64,000 bases of DNA from Betaproteobacteria bacterium (GCA_039931775.1 JBDTRG010000185.1:13337-77336); one strand, 5' to 3'. Shown: positions 1 through 18,100, counted from the first letter of the stretch. Numbers and translations are program-made. Notes: generated from the letters alone by a model not told the origin.

Positions 1-1700
1 TTGTCCGGCCCGTCGATCCCGCCCACACCCGACGGATCGCCGAGCGTCGAGAGGCTTCCGTCCGAGCCGATCCGGAGGATTCTCCCGCCCGCCTTCAACG
101 CCGCGTACAGCGCGGGGCTCTGCGCGCCATTGAAATCACCGAACGCGAGCCCTTCCGGCTTCTCCAGGTTGGCCGAGGCAGGAACCCATTCGACCAACCC
201 GCTTCCGTCGGGCATCACGCGGACGATGCGTCCGCCGTAGTCGTCCTCGGCGATGAACATCATGCCTGCGCTTCCGTACGCACTGTCCTCACGCAGGGGC
301 TGGATGCCCTCGGGGCCGTCGAGCACCGTCGCGAGCTTGGTCGCGACGCCGGATACCGGCTTGTTCGTCGCATCGTAGGTGATCGCCGTGCGGTAGAGCC
401 CGCCGAACTGGATGCCGAGATAGATCGGCAGTTCGCTCGACACGTAGACATCGCCGTTGGGATGGACGTCGAGCCGGCACGCGCCGGGAATGCCTAGCGC
501 GATCGGCAGCACGCCGCCCGTCGCCTTGTCGATCGTCACGACACCACCCGCGGCGCTGACCACTTCGAGCACGCCGAACAGGTTGCCGAACCGGTCGAAC
601 CCCAGGCCATCGATGCGCGGCAATTTCACCGGGTCGAAAACGACCAGCTCGAGCACACCCGGGATGCCATCGGCGAGCTTCGGCCCCAACGGAACGTCCG
701 AGTCAACGACGATCGCGACATCCGCGCTGTTCGTCAGCGCGCCATCGGTGGCCGTGAGCCGCAGCACGTAGTTGCCGGCGATACCGAAGGTCGCCGTGGT
801 CGTGGCCGCGCTCGAGTCGGCGAAGCTCACCGTGCCGGGCCCCGCCGCCTTGCTCCAGGTCAGCGCCAGCGCCGCGGGTGGATTGGGCAGGCCGTCGTCG
901 CTGGCCGTGCCGCCGAGATTCGCGCTGGCGGGAAAGAGGATCGTCTGATCGGCGCCGGCGCTCACCTGCGGCGGCTGATTTGCAGGCGCGGAGGGCACGG
1001 GTAACAAGGTGGTCAGCCTTGCGTTCGTCATCCCCTTGTCCGCGAGCGACAGCGTGCCGCTCGCGTTGACGTCCTTCAGGTAATTCGACGCGGTCACGAA
1101 CTGCGCGACCTGCGCGTTCACCAATCCGAGGTCGGCCAGCGTCACCACCCGGTTTTGATTCACGTCGCCCGACAGGAAACCGACGCGGATCGAACCGCTG
1201 CCGCCCGTCCGGCCGTCCGCCGTGCTGACGCTGCTCACTGTGACGGTCACGTACTGCTGATCGGCTACTCCGGTCAACGGGACGCGCATCTCGGTGCCGC
1301 CGAAAGTCGGCACCCCTGCCGTCGCGATGCCCTCGGTTACGACCGCAATCCCTCCGGTAACCGCGTTGTCGAATACAAAGACGAGGGTATGTGGGGGACC
1401 GGCGCGCGGCTCCGTCGTCGGATCCGACGACGCAAGCGATAGCGGAAGGTCGAACGTTCCGGCGGAGCCATGCGTCTTGCGCAATACGCCTCCGACGAGG
1501 ACGGGCGCAACCGCGGTCGGTCCGATGAACTGTCCGAACGCCACCGGTCGAGGTCCGACCTGAATCGTTTGGATGACCGTGTGGGTTCCCGTCTGGAGCA
1601 CGGGGACGCTATTGCCGGCCGAATTGGAGATGGAAGCGAGCGGCGCCGCGTTGGCGATGAAACCGCACAGCGCGAACAGCGAGCCTAGAAGGATGCGCAT
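1..1700 (-). CDS. secreted multidomain protein (signal peptide, dockerin-like Ca-binding repeats, PKD-like Ig domain, beta-propeller-like C-terminal part); 3' end lies outside the window
   Basis: Absent from the supplied ORF track because it has no in-window stop. My reverse-complement translation from the ATG at 1700 stays open to position 3. It starts MRILLGSLFALCGFIANAAPLASI (signal peptide). It continues with GDVNQNRVVTLADLGLVNAQ and DVNASGTLSLADKG (dockerin/EF-hand-like repeats), then PPQVSAGADQTI...LTWSKAAGPGTVSFADSSAATTTATFGIAGNYVLRLTATDGALTNSADVAIVV (PKD-like). The C-terminal part shows NGDVYVSS and MMFIAEDDYGGRIVRV (NHL/SMP-30-like). I checked the frame at both ends and in the middle. 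Confidence 0.7.
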   Translation of the reverse strand, partial: MRILLGSLFALCGFIANAAPLASISNSAGNSVPVLQTGTHTVIQTIQVGPRPVAFGQFIGPTAVAPVLVGGVLRKTHGSAGTFDLPLSLASSDPTTEPRAGPPHTLVFVFDNAVTGGIAVVTEGIATAGVPTFGGTEMRVPLTGVADQQYVTVTVSSVSTADGRTGGSGSIRVGFLSGDVNQNRVVTLADLGLVNAQVAQFVTASNYLKDVNASGTLSLADKGMTNARLTTLLPVPSAPANQPPQVSAGADQTILFPASANLGGTASDDGLPNPPAALALTWSKAAGPGTVSFADSSAATTTATFGIAGNYVLRLTATDGALTNSADVAIVVDSDVPLGPKLADGIPGVLELVVFDPVKLPRIDGLGFDRFGNLFGVLEVVSAAGGVVTIDKATGGVLPIALGIPGACRLDVHPNGDVYVSSELPIYLGIQFGGLYRTAITYDATNKPVSGVATKLATVLDGPEGIQPLREDSAYGSAGMMFIAEDDYGGRIVRVMPDGSGLVEWVPASANLEKPEGLAFGDFNGAQSPALYAALKAGGRILRIGSDGSLSTLGDPSGVGGIDGPD

Positions 1701-1874
1701 GTGCCGGCAATCCTATCAGAAGCATGAAGGCGCCCAACGCGCCGTGCGGGGTCGCCGTATGTGTGTCAACGCACCGACCTCGGCGAGGTGACGCGTCATC
1801 CTTGCCGGACGTACACACGGCGATCGGATTCCGCTCGCCCCGTGCCTCATTTCAGGTATTCGTTCGGGAGCACC

Positions 1875-2693
1875 ATGCGATCCAATTGGACCTACAAAAT
1901 GACGAGGCTGGTCATGCTCTGTTTTCTGACTCTGCTGATGGTGTCGCCGGCGCGCGGCTCGGCATTTTCAACCGACAACAGCGACCTGTGGCTTGCCCAC
2001 AACGAAGATGGGTGGGGCATGCAGCTGGTGCAGCGCGCGGACATCATGTTCGCGACGGTCTATGTGTACAGCGCCAGCATGGACCCTATCTATTACACGG
2101 TGACGCTATCGCCGATGGGCACGACCCCGGAGGGTGAAGCGATCTGGGTGGGCGACCTTTACCTGAGTCGCGGGCCGTGGTTCGGCTCGCCGACGTTCAA
2201 CTCGTCCCAGGTAAGCCGTCGCATTGTCGGGCAATTGACCTATGCCGTGAAGGACCTGTACGCGAGCACATTGACCTATTCGGTAGAGGGGGTGCAGGTC
2301 AGCAAGGAAATCTACCGGTACACACTGCGCAACGACGATTACTCAGGCTCATATGTCGGAGCGTTCAAGGTTGTCGCAACTCAGTGCTTCGATCCGGCAA
2401 GCGACGCCGTCCAGGTGTCGCTGGGCACCTTCAACGTCGTCTCCCAATCGTCCAGCGCGTTGCGCATCGTGACAAATGCCAATCAGGGATTCGCCTGTAC
2501 GTATGACGGGGACTACCAGCAATTCGGCCAGTTCGGCCAGAGTCGCGGCGCGTTTTCATGCACCGACGGTCGGGTGGGCGACTACACGTTTTATGAAATG
2601 CTCGTCACGAAGGCCGATTTCCGCGGGCTCATGGTCGGCGAAAACACGGCGGGCTGTTCGCTTTCGGGCAACTTCACCGGATTGCGCCAATAG
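1875..2693 (+). CDS. secreted four-cysteine protein of unknown function, paralog A
   Basis: Lies in track ORF 1761..2693. An internal ATG is preceded by GGGAG. Signal peptide MRSNWTYKMTRLVMLCFLTLLMVSPARG. Clear paralogy to 4665..5480 and 7729..8538, with shared FSTDNSDLW..NEDGWG, FAT.YVY, YYT.T, GDLY..GPWF, IYRYTLRNDDY, GDYQQFGQFGQ.RGA and GCSLSGNF. Confidence 0.8.
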   Translation: MRSNWTYKMTRLVMLCFLTLLMVSPARGSAFSTDNSDLWLAHNEDGWGMQLVQRADIMFATVYVYSASMDPIYYTVTLSPMGTTPEGEAIWVGDLYLSRGPWFGSPTFNSSQVSRRIVGQLTYAVKDLYASTLTYSVEGVQVSKEIYRYTLRNDDYSGSYVGAFKVVATQCFDPASDAVQVSLGTFNVVSQSSSALRIVTNANQGFACTYDGDYQQFGQFGQSRGAFSCTDGRVGDYTFYEMLVTKADFRGLMVGENTAGCSLSGNFTGLRQ

Positions 2694-2695
2694 CG

Positions 2696-3481
2696 CTAGC
2701 GCCGGCCGCGTGGACGCAGGGAAAGGTCGTCGCGACCCGCGAAGGGCGTCGGATGGACGCCGCCTCCGGCCGGTTCACCGGCGCTCGCCCAAATGCCCGA
2801 CGCATCAAAGGGCGGGATCGCCGGCCACTCCTCGATGACGACGGCGGCCCTGAGGGTAACCCAGCGCAGTTCCCAGGAGCCGCGCGATCGCAGGATCAGG
2901 TGTCCGTGCTCGCCGCGGTCGCCCTTCAAGACGAACCCATACTGCGCTTCGTCGGGAATTCCGCAGAAGTCGATCCAGGGATCGCAATCACCCAGGCAGG
3001 CCTGCGTAGTCGCGAGCGTCTCGTCGAACGCCGAATGCGCGGTGTCGTGGATCCTGATCGGGTGCCGCGGGCGATCGGGGAAGACCGATGCCAGCGCCGC
3101 CCAAGTTGCAGCGGCGGCGGCGGCCCAATCGTCGTAAGCGGTATCGCGCTGCTCGATGCCCGACCATGCGTCGAGTTGCTGCTGCGACAGCGTTCGCCCG
3201 TCGATCGTGGCGACGCGCAGCGCGCTGGGTGAGGTGGCGCAGTAAAGACACTTCCGCATCACCGGTGCATCGTTTGCGTCGACGCCGATCGTCAGATACG
3301 TGCGCGTATCGAGGTCGGGCAGGATTTCGTAACCGAACAGACCGTCCTCGACGATCGGCAAGAGGTCGAGGGTCAGGTTCGCGGGCAGCGAATAGTGGAA
3401 TGCCGCCCGTCCGAGGTGCGCGCGAAGCAGCACGAGAAGGCCCCTTGCTTGCGACAGACGCGGATAGCGGGATTCCGGCAT
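2696..3481 (-). CDS. hypothetical protein
   Basis: Lies in track ORF 2696..3598, with the likely start at MPESRYPRL. No recognisable motifs. It converges on paralog A, and both stop codons sit inside the palindrome TAGCGCTA (2691-2698). Confidence 0.5.
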   Translation of the reverse strand: MPESRYPRLSQARGLLVLLRAHLGRAAFHYSLPANLTLDLLPIVEDGLFGYEILPDLDTRTYLTIGVDANDAPVMRKCLYCATSPSALRVATIDGRTLSQQQLDAWSGIEQRDTAYDDWAAAAAATWAALASVFPDRPRHPIRIHDTAHSAFDETLATTQACLGDCDPWIDFCGIPDEAQYGFVLKGDRGEHGHLILRSRGSWELRWVTLRAAVVIEEWPAIPPFDASGIWASAGEPAGGGVHPTPFAGRDDLSLRPRGRR

Positions 3482-3650
3482 CGCGCACCCCTCGGGCGAC
3501 GGAAGCGTTGGCGGGTTGACGAATTGCAACCAGATATTGGGAACCCGCGACGGCTGGAACGCCAGCTTTTTTGAATCGATCTCAACTAGGCGTCGCAACC
3601 GTTTGAATGTGCAGGTTTCGGCGATGTGCGTCGCCGCGGCGCCTCATCCG

Positions 3651-4418
3651 TCAATCGACGTTGGCGGCCTCACCCGGTCGAACGAGCCACTCGCTGCAGT
3701 CCCAATGCAGCAATCGTTCGAGCGCGCGAATCTCGAATTCGAACGCGTCGTGCAGAAATTGCCATTCGCGCTCCGACATCGGGGACGCGTAGGGAAGCAC
3801 GTGCGCCGCTCCTGGAACCACGAGCGGCATCCGTGCGACGCCAAGGAAATCGAGTACCCCGTCGAGCGTCGGGTTCGGGCGATCGCGCAACGCCTCGTGA
3901 CGCAACACGAGCACCTGCTCCGTCGGAAAGAACGACCAGAGCCGCCGCAACTGCGCCGTGTAGTACCCCCGATCGACGTACGAGAACTTCCGGTGCTGAT
4001 GCGGCAGCGTGGACCGACAGCGGTCGCGTTCCGATTGCAACGCGTCCCAGAACGGAAGCGGTTCGTCGCGCCTCGCGCGCTGCATGTTCCAGTGCGAAAA
4101 CGCGCGCGTGATCGGGTTGCGCAACACGACGATGAGTTTCATCGCCGAGTTGTATTCCCAGATTCGCCTCGGCGCCTCCGTAGAGTACATGTAGGCCGGC
4201 GTGACTTCACCGAGCAGCGCCGTCGCCGCTGTCGGCGCGAACTGCGCGTGGTAATCCGCATAGCCCGAAAGCGTGCGTCGCATGAAGCCCGCATCGTCGT
4301 CGAACAGATGGACCTCCTTCACCTTCGCCATGCAAAGCGCCGGATGAGCCCGCAGGTAGGCGTCAAGGGCCGACGTGCCCGCCTTCTGCGCGCCGACACC
4401 GAGGAAATCGACCTTCAT
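3651..4418 (-). CDS. sulfotransferase family protein (PAPS-dependent)
   Basis: This is the C-terminal 255 aa of track ORF 3651..5309, starting at MKVDFLGVGAQKAGTSAL with GAGG upstream. The 5'-PSB-like loop is GAQKAGTS and the 3'-PB-like motif is VVLRNPITRAFSHW. The upstream part of the track ORF is antisense to paralog B and is not coding. Confidence 0.8.
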   Translation of the reverse strand: MKVDFLGVGAQKAGTSALDAYLRAHPALCMAKVKEVHLFDDDAGFMRRTLSGYADYHAQFAPTAATALLGEVTPAYMYSTEAPRRIWEYNSAMKLIVVLRNPITRAFSHWNMQRARRDEPLPFWDALQSERDRCRSTLPHQHRKFSYVDRGYYTAQLRRLWSFFPTEQVLVLRHEALRDRPNPTLDGVLDFLGVARMPLVVPGAAHVLPYASPMSEREWQFLHDAFEFEIRALERLLHWDCSEWLVRPGEAANVD

Positions 4419-4586
4419 GGACGCGACCTCGCCTCGCTCATGGCCGGGCGCGGACAGTGCGGGTCGAACGGCGAACGCTGAAAGGGTGGTACTTGCGCTT
4501 GTGCGGAGTGGGCATGGATCAACCGGCTTGGGCCAAGGCACCAATTTTCCCCTATTTGCACGTGCGCGGGTTTGCGCTTCGCGCAG

Positions 4587-4615
4587 TTGACGCGCGCCGT
4601 CGCCACCCTTAGGCT
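4587..4615 (+). promoter_or_regulatory. candidate sigma-70 promoter of paralog B
   Basis: TTGACG, 17 nt, TAGGCT, about 50 nt upstream of the ATG at 4665. Motif match only. Confidence 0.3.
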
Positions 4616-4664
4616 CGCACGTGCGGATCGATATGCGGTTTTTGGGATAGTTGCCGGAGGTGAC

Positions 4665-5480
4665 ATGCAATTGGAATGTTTTTCCGGAATTCGCAGGATG
4701 ATCATGTCTTGTCTCGTGGCGCTGGCGGTGATCGGGCCAGCGGGAGCCACGTCGTTCTCGACGGACAACAGCGACTTGTGGCTGACCAAGAACGAGGATG
4801 GCTGGGGCGTGCAGATCGTCCATCGGGCGGACGTCATGTTCGCGACCATCTACGTCTACGACGCCGACCGCTTTCCGGTCTACTACACGGCGACGCTGGT
4901 CTACGCCGGAACGAACTCCGCCGGCAATGCGGTCTGGGTCGGCGATCTTTACCTTACCAACGGCCCCTGGTTCGGCGCACCGGTCTTCAGCTCTTCGCAG
5001 GTGACCTATCGCAAGGTCGGGCAGATCGCCTATGTCCCTCAATTGGTCGAAACCGGTCTGCTCGCCTATTCGGTCGACGGCGTGACCGTGAACAAGCAGA
5101 TCTATCGATACACATTGAGGAACGACGACTATGCCGGCACGTTCGTCGGCGCATTCAAGGTCACGGCGAGCGGATGCTCGAATTCGGCGAACAACGGAAG
5201 CCAATTGATTCGTGCCACGTTCACCGTCACGCAAACCGCCAGTTCGCTGAGAATCGTGTCGAATTCCGATCAGGGCGTGTCGTGCAACTACCCCGGCGAC
5301 TACCAGCAATTCGGGCAGTTCGGCCAGACGCGCGGCGCGTACCTCTGCTCGACCGGCGAGAATGGCGCCTATACCCTATTCGAGATGAACGTCGCATACG
5401 ACGACATGCGCGGACGGATGGTGGGGACGAACAACCTGGGATGCTCGCTATCGGGTAACTTTTCGGCGATCCGGCAATAA
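4665..5480 (+). CDS. secreted four-cysteine protein of unknown function, paralog B
   Basis: Lies in track ORF 4572..5480. The start MQLECFSGIRRMIMSCLVALAVIGPAGA is preceded by GGAGGTGAC. It is the closest paralog of A, with long identical strings IYRYTLRNDDY and GDYQQFGQFGQ. Confidence 0.8.
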   Translation: MQLECFSGIRRMIMSCLVALAVIGPAGATSFSTDNSDLWLTKNEDGWGVQIVHRADVMFATIYVYDADRFPVYYTATLVYAGTNSAGNAVWVGDLYLTNGPWFGAPVFSSSQVTYRKVGQIAYVPQLVETGLLAYSVDGVTVNKQIYRYTLRNDDYAGTFVGAFKVTASGCSNSANNGSQLIRATFTVTQTASSLRIVSNSDQGVSCNYPGDYQQFGQFGQTRGAYLCSTGENGAYTLFEMNVAYDDMRGRMVGTNNLGCSLSGNFSAIRQ

Positions 5481-5728
5481 CTCCGGCCTGACCATTCGCC
5501 GGCGCATGAATCGCGTAACGGCAACGCCTGTCAGGGATGTCGGCGCGCCAGTCGATGACCCGTCGACGGGATCATGTCAATTCCCGGCAAGCGCATCGAT
5601 CTTCGCGCATGGATCCGTGGCCAATTCGCGCCACGCCCATCGCGCACTGGAGGCCACGGTAGTGCGAAATAGCCGACCCGGATCGACCCTGCGCCACCGA
5701 ACCCTCCATCGGCGCCGCATGGTGGAGG

Positions 5729-6115
5729 TTACCTCTTGCCTCCACCGATTTCCGCGGCTGTAGCTTTGGTACTCGGGGGTGATATCGCCGCCCCTGGTGG
5801 AGAATGCGCTCCCGACGCCTCGAGCGGTTTTGAGGCCAATGGCGTAATCGGGGTCGAGTAGGGACCCGGGTCGACGCAGGGCGGGGTTGCCGCGGGTGTG
5901 GGAACAGATTTGCCAGCGGTTTCCAGGCCCGCGCGATAAGCCCGCGCCGTGCGGTCCATCGATTGGCACAACTGATACCGGGCGACATTGTCGGACCACG
6001 CGGCCTTCGCCGCCGTCTCTGCCGCTAGAGCCTTCTGTGCATCGGACGGAGGCGGCAGCGCCGCTGACGCATATCCACCCACCGACACTGCAATCATGAC
6101 AGCCGCGATTCGCAC
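5729..6115 (-). CDS. small secreted Pro-rich protein, hypothetical
   Basis: Lies in track ORF 5729..6190. A GTG start has a strong AGGAGGG 8 nt upstream. Signal peptide (M)RIAAVMIAVSVGGYASAA. Two Cys and a Pro/Thr/Ala-rich C-terminus. Confidence 0.5.
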   Translation of the reverse strand: MRIAAVMIAVSVGGYASAALPPPSDAQKALAAETAAKAAWSDNVARYQLCQSMDRTARAYRAGLETAGKSVPTPAATPPCVDPGPYSTPITPLASKPLEASGAHSPPGAAISPPSTKATAAEIGGGKR

Positions 6116-6128
6116 GATGCGTACCCTC

Positions 6129-6311
6129 CTATGGCCTGCGCAGGCGGACATTGTGGGCACGGCAGTGGTATCGGTTGCGGTCACCACCAATGCCGAGCAC
6201 CACCACGAGACCCATCAGGCCCAGCACCACGCCTTCAACCGCCATCAGAATCGTGATCAGATCGTCCATTCGACATTTGTACGCCGCCCGCCGCGACGTC
6301 GCTGCCATCAT
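6129..6311 (-). CDS. small single-pass membrane protein, hypothetical
   Basis: Lies in track ORF 6129..6335. The MM start is preceded by GAGGA. Hydrophobic segment ITILMAVEGVVLGLMGLVVVLGIGG. Its TAG stop abuts the AGGAGGG Shine-Dalgarno of the next ORF, a translational-coupling layout. Confidence 0.35.
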   Translation of the reverse strand: MMAATSRRAAYKCRMDDLITILMAVEGVVLGLMGLVVVLGIGGDRNRYHCRAHNVRLRRP

Positions 6312-6353
6312 TCCGCCGATCCTCAGGTAGGCCAAGACCCGACATGGCGAGCC

Positions 6354-7511
6354 TTATTCCTTCAACCGACCTCTGAAAATCCGCGGAAGCTCGACCGTGA
6401 ATACCGTCCCCGCGGCTTCGGACGATTCGACACGCAGCTCCCCACCGTGCGCCGCGACAATGTCCCGGGCAATGAACAATCCAAGCCCGAGGCTTGTCGG
6501 ATGGGAGTCGATCAAAGGTGAATTTTCGTCGCGAAGCTGAACCATCGGATTGAAAATGACCTGCATCGCGGCCGCGGGGATGGGGCGCCCCAGGTTGATG
6601 ACTTCCAGTACGACACTCGCCGTATGTCCCTCGGCCCGCACGGTGATGGGCGAGCCGCTGGCGCCATGCTGAACCGCGTTGTTGAGCAGATTCGAGAGGA
6701 CCTGCTGCAGCCGCCCACGGTCGACCTGGCCGCGAAGGTCCCCGCGCATTTCAAGATCGAAAACAAATTCCGGGTGTGCCGCCTGTACTTCATCGTGTGC
6801 GGTTTCGCAGATGAGACCGATGTCGCACGCAATGGGCGTCACTGGCATGCTTTTACCAAGCCGGGTCCGGGTATATTCCAGCAGATCCCGGATCATCAGG
6901 CTCATCGTCAGCACGCTCTTTTTGATGCGCACGACGGCGGGCAGAGCGCTGGCATCGACCTTGCCGCGGGTCGCCAGATAGTCCGCGGTCATCGATACCG
7001 CGCTCAGCGGGCTACGCAAATCGTGGCCGAGAATGGCCAGAAACGTATCGCGCGAGCGTGTTACTTCATTGGAATAGCGGACGACCGATTCGGCCAACGC
7101 TTGGTCAACCGCCTCGTTGAACCGAGTCATCTCGGTGAGCACGTTATCCTGCTGGCTCGACAGGTGCTCGCGCCAAAGCTTTATGACGCTTGCCCGCAGG
7201 GCGCGATATTCCGACGTCAGCTGAATGAGGTCGAAACCGACGAGGTGCCTGAGCGCTCCATGGGTGGCAGCGGCGGTTTCCTTCCCCTCCAGAACCGGCG
7301 CCCAGCCCTTCGACTTGTCGTCCTGCTGAGCGTCGGTTTGCGCGGCATCGATGTCGCGCGCCATGGCCTGCAATATCTCCCTGGCGTGGCTGCGAAGCGC
7401 CAATGCCGTCATGGTTTCCGCCGCCGGCTGCAGCGTAAGCGCGAAAGCCTCCCATTCCGCCAGGATCGCGTCGAGGTTTTGGTTGATGAACTGCGCAAGC
7501 GTCACAAACAT
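6354..7511 (-). CDS. soluble (no TM) sensor histidine kinase, orphan
   Basis: H-box FLAILGHDLRSPLSAV, N-box LSNLLNNAVQHG, G-boxes GLGLGLFIARDIVAAHGG. The N-terminal roughly 150 aa (FINQNLDAILAEWEAFA) resemble RsbRD-type sensor N-domains. No response regulator is adjacent. Confidence 0.85.
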   Translation of the reverse strand: MFVTLAQFINQNLDAILAEWEAFALTLQPAAETMTALALRSHAREILQAMARDIDAAQTDAQQDDKSKGWAPVLEGKETAAATHGALRHLVGFDLIQLTSEYRALRASVIKLWREHLSSQQDNVLTEMTRFNEAVDQALAESVVRYSNEVTRSRDTFLAILGHDLRSPLSAVSMTADYLATRGKVDASALPAVVRIKKSVLTMSLMIRDLLEYTRTRLGKSMPVTPIACDIGLICETAHDEVQAAHPEFVFDLEMRGDLRGQVDRGRLQQVLSNLLNNAVQHGASGSPITVRAEGHTASVVLEVINLGRPIPAAAMQVIFNPMVQLRDENSPLIDSHPTSLGLGLFIARDIVAAHGGELRVESSEAAGTVFTVELPRIFRGRLKE

Positions 7512-7728
7512 CTGCCTCGCAGAGAGCGGGTTCGCTCAAATTGCCAGATTGTCCGCGATCCGACTGTACGTTACCCGACATTAGGGAGCTCACCGGCTTC
7601 GGATGCGGGACTCGGATGCACCATGACGTCGACCAGGTCGCCCCCGATCGAAATGCAGCAACTAGGCAGTCGCGCGTATTCCACGGTAGTCTACGGAAGT
7701 CCCCAGGTCCACTTCCAGGAGAATATCC

Positions 7729-8538
7729 GTGACCATGTTGCGCCGCGTGGCCGTTGCTTTGCTTGCCTCAATGCTGCTGCACGTTCCGTCAGTTACCGCC
7801 TCGTCATTTACGACCGACCAGAGCGATTCATGGTGGATTCCCAATGAATCGGGCTGGGGAATCCAGTTTGTCGAACGCGGCTCGACAATCTTCGCCACGT
7901 TATATGTTTACGGCCCGGATTCGAAAGCGACGTGGTACACCGCAACGATGTTTCTCGTGGGAAATACCTTAACTTGGTCGGGTGACCTTTACGGCACGAC
8001 AGGACCGTACTTTGCGGCCGTCCCGTTCGATCCCAATGCGGTCATCCGGACAAAGGTGGGAACGATGACGTGGACTGCACTGGACGTGGCGACTGGGACA
8101 CTGAGCTACGACGTGAATGGCGTCAATGTTACGAAGTCCAACGTGACCCGGACATTCGCGGGGTTCGATGATTTCAGTGGCCATTATGCAGGCGGCGTCC
8201 ATCGGACTGTTTCCGGATGTACCGACCAGACGTTGAACGTCACGAAGGAAGTCCCGGCAGTCATCTATGTCAATCAAAATGGTCCGTCGATTCAAGTGCT
8301 GGAAATTGACGCCGGTGGCAGCTGCACCTATACCGGCACATCATCGCAACTGGGACAAATGGGGGCCGCTCAGGGCACATTCTTCTGCAGTGACGGGTTA
8401 TCGGGTGGGTTTTCGTTTTTCGAGATGCAGGTGACCATTAGCGGTCTCACCGGTCGCTTTGGAAAAAATTTCAACCCGCCCGCAACAGGGTGTCAATCTT
8501 CGGGTTGGTTTGGGGGCGCGCGCGGGGAAACGTTCTAG
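7729..8538 (+). CDS. secreted four-cysteine protein of unknown function, paralog C (divergent)
   Basis: GTG start with AGGAGA upstream. Signal peptide MTMLRRVAVALLASMLLHVPSVTA. It shares FTTDQSDSWW.PNESGWG, FATLYVY, WYTAT, GDLY.TTGPYF and the four conserved Cys with A and B. Confidence 0.8.
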   Translation: MTMLRRVAVALLASMLLHVPSVTASSFTTDQSDSWWIPNESGWGIQFVERGSTIFATLYVYGPDSKATWYTATMFLVGNTLTWSGDLYGTTGPYFAAVPFDPNAVIRTKVGTMTWTALDVATGTLSYDVNGVNVTKSNVTRTFAGFDDFSGHYAGGVHRTVSGCTDQTLNVTKEVPAVIYVNQNGPSIQVLEIDAGGSCTYTGTSSQLGQMGAAQGTFFCSDGLSGGFSFFEMQVTISGLTGRFGKNFNPPATGCQSSGWFGGARGETF

Positions 8539-8630
8539 CTACTAGAAGGACAGCGCCCTTCCTTATTGGACCCATCTCGTGAATCGTCCACGAGGATTCG
8601 CCAGCTCTGGCCAGGGCGGGAAACGAAGAC

Positions 8631-8648
8631 GGCCCCCGCTTGGGGGCC
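8631..8648. terminator. bidirectional rho-independent terminator (paralog C / ssrA)
   Basis: GGCCCCC-GCTT-GGGGGCC hairpin with T-rich runs on both strands. It lies between the paralog C stop and the tmRNA 3' end. Confidence 0.6.
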
Positions 8649-8661
8649 GCCCTTCTTGGTT

Positions 8662-9028
8662 TGGTGGAGGTGGGCGGAATCGAACCGCCGTCCGGAAGCG
8701 CTAAACAGTCAGGACTACATGCTTAGTCGAGTCATTGTGCTCTCGCCCCGACGCCGTTGACTGACAGACGACGGCAGGACCAGTCACCTAGATTTAGCAC
8801 CTCGCCCAAGTGACCCGGGCGGGCGCGATCGTCCTGAATGTCCTCGCTGTGACAGATTCATCACCCCGGTCGGACGCTACCGGGTGCGAGGTCCGGCGGG
8901 ATTAAGCCGCCAGAGCGTACGTTTCGTCGTTCGCAGTTAAGTTTGCGATTGCAGTAGGATTTACGAGGACCTGCGCCTCGGCATGCCCCGAGCTGCGTTG
9001 CTACCCCCGTCGAAACCAGGTCACCCCC
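8662..9028 (-). ncRNA. ssrA: tmRNA (SsrA)
   Basis: The reverse complement starts GGGGGTGACCTGGTTTCGACGGGG and ends GGCGGTTCGATTCCGCCCACCTCCACCA. The acceptor stem has a G3:U pair. The tag reading frame GCG AAC GAC GAA ACG TAC GCT CTG GCG GCT TAA encodes ANDETYALAA. Confidence 0.95.
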
Positions 9029-9086
9029 GGATGTCGCCGGCGCGTCGCGAATGTTCCCGCGGCGCGTTTCTTGCTCTGGAACACCG

Positions 9087-9095
9087 ATCATACCA
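9087..9095 (-). promoter_or_regulatory. candidate extended -10 element for pre-tmRNA
   Basis: The minus strand reads TGGTATGAT (TGn-TATGAT) about 55-60 nt upstream of the mature 5' end. Motif match only. Confidence 0.3.
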
Positions 9096-9153
9096 CCCGG
9101 TGCTCCCTCGACTACGTGGGGTAGACTCGTCCAGAATCAATACGTTCCGGCGC

Positions 9154-10644
9154 ATGGCCCCAAAAACAATGTCGTCTACAGCCGCAAATCAGCGCATCGT
9201 CCCCGTCATCCTCTCCGGCGGGGCCGGCACGCGGCTTTGGCCGTTGTCGCGCGAGACGGCACCCAAGCCATCGATGCGGCTGCCCGACGGTGAAACGCTG
9301 CTCGCGAAAACCGCGGTGCGCGCGCTGAAACTGCCGGGCGTCTCGGAACTCTTCACCGTCACCAATCGCGAGTACTACTTCCACACGCGGGATGCCTACG
9401 CGGGACTCCCCGGCGGAGCGCCGAAGCGCGCATCGTTCCTGCTCGAACCTTTCGGCCGCAATACGGCACCCGCGGTTGCGCTCGCGGCACTTTGCGTGGA
9501 AATGGCGGGAGCCGGCGAAGCCGTGCTGCTGGTGCTGCCGGCCGACCACCTGGTCCGCGACCAAGCGGCGTTCGCCGCCGCGGTCGCGCAAGGTGTGCGG
9601 CTCGCGCAACGCGGCTCGCTGGTGACGTTCGGGATCGGCCCCACGCATCCGGAGACAGGATTCGGCTACATCGAGTGCGGCGACGCCCTCGCCGGCACCG
9701 CGCCACCGGCGTTTGCGGCGCGCCGGTTCGTCGAGAAGCCGCCGTTCGGCACCGCGCGCGAGTACCTGGTGGCCGGAAATTTTGCCTGGAATTCGGGAAT
9801 GTTCTGTTTCACCTCGACCGCGATCATCGCCGCATTCGCGCGGCACGCGCCCGGGGTGCTCGACGCGGTGCGCCCCATTGCGAAGGCGATCGCCGCCAAG
9901 GGTCTGGGGTCGATACTTGAAATCGACGCCGCGCTTTTCGCCACGGTCCCGGATATCTCGCTGGACTACGCCGTTATGGAAAAGGCGGCCACGGCCGGCG
10001 AGGTCTCGGTCGTTCGCGGAACGTTCGACTGGAGCGACATCGGTTCGTGGCAGGCGGTCGCCGATCTCGAGCCGCCTGACGCACATGGCAATCGCGGACA
10101 GGGCGAGCGCGTTTCGATCGCGACCACTGGCACGTACGTCAACGCCGGCGACCGCCTGGTCGCGACGGTCGGCGTCGAAAACCTCGTCATCGTCGACACG
10201 CCGGATGCATTGCTCGTCGCGCATCGCGACCATCTGCAGCGCGTCAAGGATGTCGTCGGTGAGTTGAAGGCGCGCGGCCACGACGCGTACAAGCTGCACA
10301 AGACGGTCGCGCGGCCCTGGGGCGCCTACACGGTGCTGCAGGAAGGCCCCGGCTTCAAGATCAAGCGGATCGAAGTCAAGTCCGGCGCGTCGCTGTCGCT
10401 GCAACTTCATCACCGCCGGAGCGAACATTGGGTGGTCGTGGCGGGCATCGCCAACGTGACACGCGGCGACGAGACGTTCCGCGTCAACGCGAACGGATCG
10501 ACGTATATCCCGGTCGAAACGAGGCATCGCCTCGAAAATCCCGGGAAAGAGCCGCTGGTGATGATCGAGGTCCAGTGCGGCGATTACCTCGGTGAGGACG
10601 ACATCGTCCGCTTCGACGACAAATACGGGCGCGTGCCCGCATAA
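9154..10644 (+). CDS. manC: mannose-1-phosphate guanylyltransferase / mannose-6-phosphate isomerase
   Basis: PVILSGGAGTRLWPLSRE nucleotidyltransferase loop and a C-terminal cupin (RPWGAYTVL, HHRRSEHWVVVAG). The track ORF start at 8983 overlaps ssrA and is rejected. The real start is the ATG at 9154 or 9169. Confidence 0.9.
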   Translation: MAPKTMSSTAANQRIVPVILSGGAGTRLWPLSRETAPKPSMRLPDGETLLAKTAVRALKLPGVSELFTVTNREYYFHTRDAYAGLPGGAPKRASFLLEPFGRNTAPAVALAALCVEMAGAGEAVLLVLPADHLVRDQAAFAAAVAQGVRLAQRGSLVTFGIGPTHPETGFGYIECGDALAGTAPPAFAARRFVEKPPFGTAREYLVAGNFAWNSGMFCFTSTAIIAAFARHAPGVLDAVRPIAKAIAAKGLGSILEIDAALFATVPDISLDYAVMEKAATAGEVSVVRGTFDWSDIGSWQAVADLEPPDAHGNRGQGERVSIATTGTYVNAGDRLVATVGVENLVIVDTPDALLVAHRDHLQRVKDVVGELKARGHDAYKLHKTVARPWGAYTVLQEGPGFKIKRIEVKSGASLSLQLHHRRSEHWVVVAGIANVTRGDETFRVNANGSTYIPVETRHRLENPGKEPLVMIEVQCGDYLGEDDIVRFDDKYGRVPA

Positions 10645-17509: not shown

Positions 17510-18100
17510 GTGATGTCGAAGTCGCTTGCCCTGTTGTTTCTCGCCGCCGTTCCCTACACCGCCGCGGCAGCGCCGGAAAGCTTCACCGTCGACCCGATGC
17601 ATTCGTCGGTGAACTTCGCCATCGACTATGGCGGGCTCAACATCATCTACGGCAAGTTCACGAAGTTCGGCGCGAAGTTCACGATGGACCGCGCGGCCAA
17701 GACCGGTTCGGTCGACGTAACGATCGAGACCGCGTCGGTCGACTCGGGAGACAGCGACAAGGGCAGCCGCCCGCGCTCGCGCGACGACCACTTGCGCACG
17801 GCCGACTTCTTCAACGCCGCCGAATTTCCCCGGATGACCTACAAGTCGAGCCGGGTCGTCTTCACCGGAGACAATCCGTCCGCCATCGAAGGCAGCCTGA
17901 CGCTGCTCGGCGTGACGAAGCCCGTCGCGTTGACGATCGAGCGCTTCAAGTGCAACCCGGCGACGGCAACCGCAAAGGAACGCTGCGGTACCGTTGCGGT
18001 CGGCAAGTTCAAGCGCTCCGAATTCGGGATGACCCGGGGTATTCCGACCATCAACGACGAGGTCGCCTTGACGATCAGCGTCCAGGGCATCCTCGACTGA
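17510..18100 (+). CDS. YceI-family periplasmic polyisoprenoid-binding protein
   Basis: Signal peptide followed by FTVDPMHSSVNF...HLRTADFFNAAEFP...G.LTLLGVTKPV, the typical YceI signature. Confidence 0.9.
   Translation: MMSKSLALLFLAAVPYTAAAAPESFTVDPMHSSVNFAIDYGGLNIIYGKFTKFGAKFTMDRAAKTGSVDVTIETASVDSGDSDKGSRPRSRDDHLRTADFFNAAEFPRMTYKSSRVVFTGDNPSAIEGSLTLLGVTKPVALTIERFKCNPATATAKERCGTVAVGKFKRSEFGMTRGIPTINDEVALTISVQGILD

Follow-up and report, generated by a model that had tools for sequence, protein, structure and literature searches.

Exported two-barrel proteins of soil Betaproteobacteria and the occurrence of their N-terminal barrel as a C-terminal tandem on unrelated exoproteins

AimA of Aeromonas veronii (PDB 6B7L) is a secreted protein of ~290 amino acids (aa) whose signal peptide is followed by two beta-rich, calycin-like domains with a short linker between them; no known domain resembles it in sequence, and the two domains have hardly any relationship to one another (PMC6219842). 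It is host-associated and confined to Aeromonas, and its N domain forms an incomplete barrel (PMC6219842). Here we describe three paralogous genes, A, B and C, which lie within 7 kb of a 64,000-nucleotide stretch of DNA from a Betaproteobacteria bacterium (GCA_039931775.1 JBDTRG010000185.1:13337-77336; hereafter the window) and whose closest characterised analogue in architecture is AimA, that is, an exported protein of two calycin domains. The N-terminal barrel (N-barrel) of their family was matched to AimA by Foldseek with a TMq of 0.46, but the full-length template modelling (TM) score is only 0.20, and 6B7L did not appear in profile searches of the PDB at E<=10, which gives no sign of homology to AimA. 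Unlike AimA, the A/B/C family is huge and soil-derived, has four Cys in its second barrel, and has a first barrel that is reusable. We give about even chances to the reading that A, B and C are exported two-barrel binding or tether proteins, old paralogues that came to lie side by side, whose N-barrel is reused elsewhere as a C-terminal tandem.

Paralogue A (1875..2693) is an open reading frame (ORF) of 272 aa, for which the NCBI start at 1899 yields 264 aa and a 100 % match to ABI724_18205; B (4665..5480; 271 aa) belongs to the same subfamily as A, and C (7729..8538; 269 aa, GTG start) is a member of the main clade of the family. An earlier note on this DNA had reported the three ORFs at these coordinates; all lie on the + strand, and a Shine-Dalgarno-like GGAG is found within a few bases upstream of each start codon. 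From the alignment and the AlphaFold2 (AF2) model, A is divided into a signal peptide (~1875-1958), an N-barrel (~1959-2330) and a four-Cys C-terminal barrel (C-barrel; ~2331-2690), and the corresponding parts are ~4665-4748, ~4749-5120 and ~5121-5477 in B and 7729-7800, ~7801-8163 and ~8164-8535 in C, so that the mature proteins have ~240 residues after removal of the signal peptide. In BLASTP, A shares 57 % identity with B (E 6e-117) and 36 % with C (E 3e-50), far beyond chance, and the three-way alignment, with a mean column identity of 65 %, contains every shared motif from which the note had concluded paralogy, together with C171, C208, C229 and C261 (A numbering), which are identical across A, B and C. 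Among 63 aligned family members, C171 and C261 never vary, and the conservation of C208 and of C229 is at least 90 %.

The other structural statements of that note, namely that the proteins are exported, Cys-bearing and devoid of any characterised domain, also held. A, B and C each have a Sec-type signal peptide, as do 63/63 aligned members, with a basic n-region, a hydrophobic core and an AxA-type site (judged by eye) directly preceding the conserved mature N-terminus TSF[ST]TD[QN]SD; a lipobox was seen by eye in 0/63. Pfam assigned 0 families to A, B and C at E<=1, NCBIfam gave no match, and PDB sequence profile searches for the family returned noise only, apart from bradavidin (2y32), the sole and weak match of the N-module profile (E 0.048 over 70 residues). 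Profile searches thus place A, B and C in no known family, and the source metagenome-assembled genome (MAG) annotates them as 'hypothetical' (locus tags ABI724_18205 and ABI724_18235). PADLOC models matched none of A, B, C, the neighbouring protein X and the neighbouring sulfotransferase, giving no indication of anti-phage defence. A scan with Rfam upstream of A, B and C found no riboswitch or leader; in a promoter scan, sites of the sigma-70 consensus were absent and terminators were no more frequent than expected by chance.

The ratio of nonsynonymous to synonymous substitution (dN/dS), calculated by NG86 on the mature parts, is 0.24 for A against its orthologue, 0.10 for B against its orthologue (locus L001) and 0.23 for A against B, in which dS is saturated. 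These genes are therefore under purifying selection and, at whole-gene resolution, are constrained, not diversifying. Of the binding, lectin or effector/receptor role once suggested for a diversifying surface or secreted family, binding stands as the best-supported guess, and the diversifying part has to be given up (dN/dS 0.10-0.24).

A word-indexed search with the A/B/C profile matched 350 proteins, all of ~265-272 aa, unnamed and without Pfam domains, and an exhaustive hidden Markov model (HMM) search of 1.84 billion cluster representatives found 5062 at E<=1e-3, a count that takes in proteins with the N module alone, and 1338 at E<=1e-30. A scan of one genome per species, which was queried with two conserved family peptides and is biased toward close relatives, gave 144 relatives; the best 80 of these 144 come nearly all from Casimicrobiaceae, Usitatibacter or 'uncultured beta proteobacterium' soil MAGs, with one Lysobacter, and show multiple dispersed family copies per genome. 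Every name among the distant cluster members is that of an unnamed metagenome protein. When the 63 family members were compared with Pfam, no related family was found even at E<=10, lipocalin included; tblastn found no match in plasmid sequences, and a literature search on the motifs ESGWG and YQDLWW and on Casimicrobiaceae found nothing relevant. The family is thus large, unannotated and made up of Sec-exported soluble proteins, and its members A, B and C diverged from one another long ago. As this family amounts to thousands of 50 %-identity clusters and is abundant in soil Betaproteobacteria, definitions of its domains would annotate many 'hypothetical' exported proteins.

The AF2 model of A, built from a 63-sequence alignment (predicted local distance difference test, pLDDT, 90.4; predicted TM score, pTM, 0.74), has a signal helix followed by two all-beta domains (residues 35-149 and 158-271), each with eight strands, and the N-barrel of C modelled alone gave similar values (pLDDT 90.5, pTM 0.81). 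As modelled, both domains look like eight-stranded, antiparallel, up-and-down barrels, of calycin type (lipocalin/avidin-like) at the level of fold only. In Foldseek against the PDB, the N domain matched nitrophorins (probability 1.0, TM ~0.5), retinol-binding protein (RBP), bradavidin, VtrC, biogenic-amine-binding protein and AimA, and the full-length model matched designed (de novo) eight-stranded barrels (TM to target 0.53-0.62), nitrobindin and YceI. Structure prediction followed by Foldseek, the check that the note had advised, thus returned similarity of calycin type but no significant match (E <1e-3). The two halves show no sequence relationship by hhalign, which argues against internal duplication. 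All four Cys fall in the C domain, in loops that the strand order of the model puts at the same barrel end, and two loop-stapling disulfides, 171-208 and 229-261, plausibly stabilise the C-barrel. Invariant polar residues occur in both the N-barrel (D37, E44, R54, K144 and R148) and the C-barrel (D154, Q191, Q216, Q219 and E241). The C-barrel with its four conserved Cys is specific to the family, and neither barrel is covered by a Pfam or NCBIfam model.

Members of the lipocalin/calycin group (nitrophorins, RBP, bacterial Blc, avidins, YceI and nitrobindin), exported ligand-binding proteins with an eight-stranded antiparallel +1 barrel that the models of the family resemble, are its best Foldseek matches. 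The family differs from lipocalins and avidins in having no Pfam match at E<=10, no C-terminal helix (the DSSP strings show no helix after either barrel) and two barrels instead of one. Slam-dependent surface proteins and hemophores resemble it as beta-rich, two-domain exported proteins that end in an eight-stranded barrel, and the full-length model was matched at high probability to HphA (0.97), TbpB (0.80) and fHbp (0.75), yet the superposition is poor (TM 0.27-0.31; root-mean-square deviation >13 A) and the family has no lipobox. Membership of the Slam-type group thus found no support; no outer-membrane gene recurs beside the family genes, Slam itself not having been searched for.

The N-barrel is not restricted to proteins of the A/B/C type. 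When architectures were counted with domain HMMs from both halves in 267 retrieved proteins, the order N-C accounted for 247/267, N-C-N-C for 13/267 and N-N-C for 3/267, and N-N-N, N-N, N-C-N and N alone were found in 1/267 each. N-C units were also found fused to a C-type lectin, to Ig_7/PKD repeats and to a lactonase-like propeller, and three larger exported proteins in related loci end with N-N. For the 360-aa domain of L055_8, assignment as a GH5-like glycosidase was considered, and the PDB search did not support it. A metagenome scan with N-N modules returned at least 600 stretches, 566 of which were confirmed. In 74 of the best 80 metagenome loci, a variable region of 110-720 aa is followed by exactly N-N, and the protein ends 8-9 residues past the second N module. 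The N-N unit is better conserved than its passengers and has exactly two Cys in 73/74, one at the end of module 1 (GPLPTC) and one at the penultimate residue of the protein (consensus ...ITRQVFRxPGT[VL]C[QRH]); examples among the soil-metagenome loci L085-L164 are L087 584-3265 and L117 1457-4372. No Pfam model covers the unit, and NCBIfam assigned 0 families to it when isolated. The N-barrel is thus an autonomous and promiscuous extracytoplasmic module.

The passengers of N-N, counted in 71 carriers, are Peptidase_S8 (12/71), PAF-AH/chlorophyllase-like hydrolases (10/71), a 190-aa domain without assignment (10/71), Peptidase_M64 (6/71), a VesB-like immunoglobulin-like (Ig-like) domain that corresponds to the NCBIfam choice-of-anchor D domain (6/71; best E 2.6e-42), trypsin-like proteases (3/71) and cytochrome c (2/71 by Pfam; a BLAST cluster of 11, whose inspected members have CXXCH), together with an NHL protein like the PEP-CTERM protein ScyF, a HAF repeat protein and a midcut-by-XrtH protein (1/71 each). 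The extreme C-terminus is the usual place of anchor, sorting or accessory binding domains, and the 'choice-of-anchor' domains of NCBIfam are defined by carrying alternative C-terminal anchors. Like the C-terminal sorting or anchor tails (PEP-CTERM, GlyGly-CTERM, the C-terminal domain of the type IX secretion system, PPC/PKD), N-N occupies the very C-terminal end of exported passengers that are unrelated to each other and has a conserved terminus, and its choice-of-anchor D, ScyF-like, HAF-repeat and VesB-like Ig passengers bear such anchors elsewhere. It differs from them in having no transmembrane helix or basic tail and in consisting of ~250 residues of folded barrels, and the module in A, B and C, in contrast to N-N tails, is N-terminal and single. 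None of the known sorting-domain models in NCBIfam and Pfam matched N-N. As for carbohydrate-binding modules (CBMs), only 1/63 family members had a CBM_6 match (E 0.14), which does not place the family among them, and the carriers of N-N are mostly proteases, esterases and cytochromes, not glycosidases. The choice-of-anchor passengers, the fixed terminal position and the diversity of the passengers together argue for N-N being a generic unit (tether, sorting or accessory) and against its being a substrate-specific CBM.

We propose for A, B and C a role in binding or tethering, without catalysis, in the periplasm or outside the cell. The partner of their N-barrel, bound via the conserved E44/K144/R148 cluster, may be a common component of the envelope or matrix or else a ligand that is shared, and the C-barrel may supply a second binding site that is specific to each paralogue. 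A bolder form of this proposal, which we hold to be unlikely, is that the N-barrel would be the recognition or tether module of a new route for surface retention or sorting of exoproteins in Casimicrobiaceae-like soil Betaproteobacteria. The N-N pair, closed by a disulfide and ending in PGTxCQ, would then be a new kind of anchor at the C-terminus that takes the place of PEP-CTERM-type tags on choice-of-anchor D, ScyF-like, HAF and protease passengers, and A, B and C would be stand-alone users or regulators of the same docking site. The presence of the N-barrel on the C-termini of secreted proteases, esterases and cytochromes is the more consequential point of this analysis, as it concerns soil and sludge bacteria that are widespread and poorly studied. 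Among cultured candidates for carrying the family, Casimicrobium huifangae SJ-1 can be transformed (PMC13515534), and Usitatibacter is a second candidate. Whether the N-barrel serves as a tether to cell or matrix, as an aid to outer-membrane passage or in substrate binding would show how this lineage organises its exoproteome.

Several points weigh against the proposal that these are binding or tether proteins. Foldseek against the PDB gave nothing below E 1e-3 (best E 1.7e-3, TM <=0.62), and since all E values are >1e-3 and TM is <=~0.6, 'calycin' is a label at the level of fold and not one of homology. The cavity, the disulfide pairing and the orientation of the charged residues are predicted from strand order alone, and the invariant polar residues of both barrels would fit an enzyme too. 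As the census of N-N was drawn from the 80 loci that best matched a single query module, one clade may be over-represented in it. Furthermore, no conserved secretion or sorting gene lies beside N-N or N-C genes in the loci examined: when the 80 N-N loci were searched for neighbouring secretion or processing genes, none was recurrent and no cognate processing gene was found, the only recurring neighbours being a two-component pair in 7-8 loci. Because no dedicated machinery gene recurs nearby, a generic tether or sorting role of N-N is something that we infer.

If the ligand were held inside the barrel, as in classical lipocalins, the family would consist of periplasmic or secreted small-molecule carriers or scavengers for a lipid, isoprenoid, haem, siderophore or vitamin that differs by paralogue. 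The best structural matches do carry ligands (nitrophorins, RBP, biogenic-amine-binding protein, bradavidin, YceI, nitrobindin and VtrC), and several dispersed paralogues per genome would suit such a role; however, it leaves the tandem N-barrel at a fixed C-terminal position on proteases, esterases and cytochromes unexplained, no transporter or receptor gene is consistently adjacent, and the TM scores are modest, so that we regard carriage in this sense as improbable. Catalysis by one of the barrels, with an active site formed from the invariant Asp, Glu, Lys, Arg and Gln residues as in calycin-fold enzymes, would account for the unusually large number of such residues in both barrels and for the strongly purifying selection, but the family matches no enzyme family, and attachment of the N-barrel to proteins that already have a catalytic domain is typical of accessory modules; we consider an enzymatic role very unlikely. 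Small disulfide-bonded periplasmic barrels are also a recurring design of inhibitors (MliC/PliC, Inh), and proteases make up 21/71 of the N-N carriers, which would agree with A, B and C as protective periplasmic inhibitors of proteases or lysozymes and, for the N-N tails of proteases, with a role as inhibitor or chaperone within the molecule. As N-N occurs just as well on esterases, cytochromes c and Ig-like proteins and no inhibitor family is matched in structure, this possibility is hardly credible.

The neighbouring genes suggest a further alternative, in which A and B would act together with a sulfotransferase and protein X, either by being sulfated or by binding or exporting a sulfated product, and C might report to a histidine kinase. 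The sulfotransferase (3651..4418, - strand; 255 aa; Sulfotransfer_1, Pfam E 1.5e-12) is the divergent neighbour of B, and X (2696..3481, - strand), a conserved hypothetical protein of 261 aa in the NCBI call, without known domain and with at least 140 unnamed homologues, lies downstream of it in the same direction. A and B form direct repeats, 73-75 % identical, on either side of this inverted X-sulfotransferase pair. The resulting A-X-sulfotransferase-B block is a sharply bounded unit of 3.7 kb (window 1760-5476) with 85 % nucleotide identity to a second, sister genome (L001 9885-13663), in which the flanks differ, and this bounded unit favours a functional link. So does the fragment at L167 2952-3206, apparently a decayed family gene, which matches the C-barrel over its first 70 positions only (E 3e-19) and is found 1.3 kb upstream of a sulfotransferase-X pair. 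However, pairs without family genes are present elsewhere (L166 5104-6867 and L167 4504-6250), other members of the A/B subfamily adjoin TPR-GT41/ECF sigma or UvrD/sigma-54 genes, and, unlike the exported A and B, the sulfotransferase shows no signal peptide in its sequence; sulfotransferase and X travel with A and B in this lineage only. The kinase (6354..7511, - strand), a soluble protein with RsbRD_N, HisKA and HATPase_c and the divergent neighbour of C, is missing next to the L165 orthologue of C and next to a family copy in L062, and is not a conserved partner of the family. Functional coupling of the paralogues to these neighbours therefore appears quite improbable. Apart from this question, the sulfotransferase-X pair is a conserved two-gene pair in several genomes, usually near MFS, EAL, EF-P and EarP genes.

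Each of the three genes is indeed divergent from its upstream neighbour, as the note had observed, A from a secreted PKD-domain protein (3..1700, - strand, cut by the window edge; K319L-like PKD, E 2.3e-8), B from the sulfotransferase and C from the histidine kinase. Coupling to these neighbours, which the note had drawn from the arrangement, finds no echo in the family, in which 82 other loci show unrelated syntenic housekeeping blocks. Family genes are mostly stand-alone transcription units with a median upstream gap of 323 bp; 42/79 are transcribed divergently from the gene upstream, and in only 7 does a gene of the same direction lie close by on that side. A search of 83 loci for a conserved partner gene returned syntenic housekeeping blocks only, the recurrent ones being cardiolipin-synthase-like plus aldo-keto reductase, MetY plus DsbB-like, MlaEFD, and enolase plus FtsB; these blocks mark orthologous positions, not a common partner. 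The gene for the DsbB-like membrane protein adjoins a family copy in 11 related loci (e.g. L027 5071-5727), within the MetY/CoA-binding syntenic block, and this adjacency, notable for an exported protein with four Cys, may be mere synteny.

The cluster itself did not arise by the local triplication that had been suggested. The neighbor-joining tree assigns A and B, both of which have separate orthologues elsewhere, to a distinct subfamily (TDNSD motif), and C to the main clade. In the sister genome the C orthologue is on another contig of the same sample (L165), with other flanks, and only 7686-8558 of the window is common to the two. Three copies within 16 kb are found in the window only, and two copies in five loci. 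The A-X-sulfotransferase-B block and gene C moved as discrete units, homology ending sharply at their borders. C is faced by the 3' end of the transfer-messenger RNA (tmRNA) gene ssrA (8662..9028, - strand; tag ANDETYALAA; Rfam 194 bits, E 1.8e-78; also called by ARAGORN), and family copies adjoin ssrA also in L062 and L045. In L001, a segment at 17714-17778 holds the last ~25-28 nt of tmRNA and its terminator (cf. window 8620-8685) beside an ISL3 transposase, ~4 kb from the A-X-sulfotransferase-B cassette, and looks like an att-type remnant of an ssrA-targeted insertion. GC content is 0.60-0.63 at 2-8 kb and 0.66-0.70 elsewhere in the window. The tmRNA adjacency, the L001 remnant and the low GC content together mark a rearrangement-prone, variable zone that flanks ssrA. 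Neither an integrase nor a second att copy was found in the window, and because there are no terminal repeats around the A-X-sulfotransferase-B block beyond the A/B duplication and no second tmRNA 3' end in the window, an ssrA-integrated island is not demonstrated. The 7-kb cluster is a lineage-specific juxtaposition of old paralogues beside the tmRNA gene and not a recent triplication, and A, B and C themselves are ordinary constrained paralogues assembled by rearrangement and do not form a diversifying locus.

The PKD protein beside A had been labelled 'dockerin/PKD/propeller'; Pfam supports PKD only, and the dockerin and propeller labels were not confirmed. Secreted proteins of beta-propeller or GSDH type recur beside or fused to family members, in numbers too small to judge: a GSDH neighbour is present in two loci of one MAG (L004 5950-7467; L003 7230-8000), P0199 is a lactonase-like propeller fused to N-C-N-C, and the cut PKD protein (3-1700) is a possible further case with its propeller unconfirmed. 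A mechanically called ORF at 8983-10644 overlaps the tmRNA gene, and the start of this mannose-1-phosphate guanylyltransferase is therefore probably near 9154-9169. Gene C has a poor codon-model score of 13.7, as against 73 for A and 88 for B, under a model trained on the long ORFs of related loci. A small conserved ORF (FPFRYxDPxxGKWxRARY...), none of which was seen after B in the window, follows B-like copies in L001 (13752-13955) and L016 (8860-9252). Finally, a hydrophobic ORF of 46 aa lies between B and the histidine kinase (6129-6269, - strand) and is kept in the sister genome with 75 % nucleotide identity (L165 14837-14977), ~4 kb from the C orthologue.

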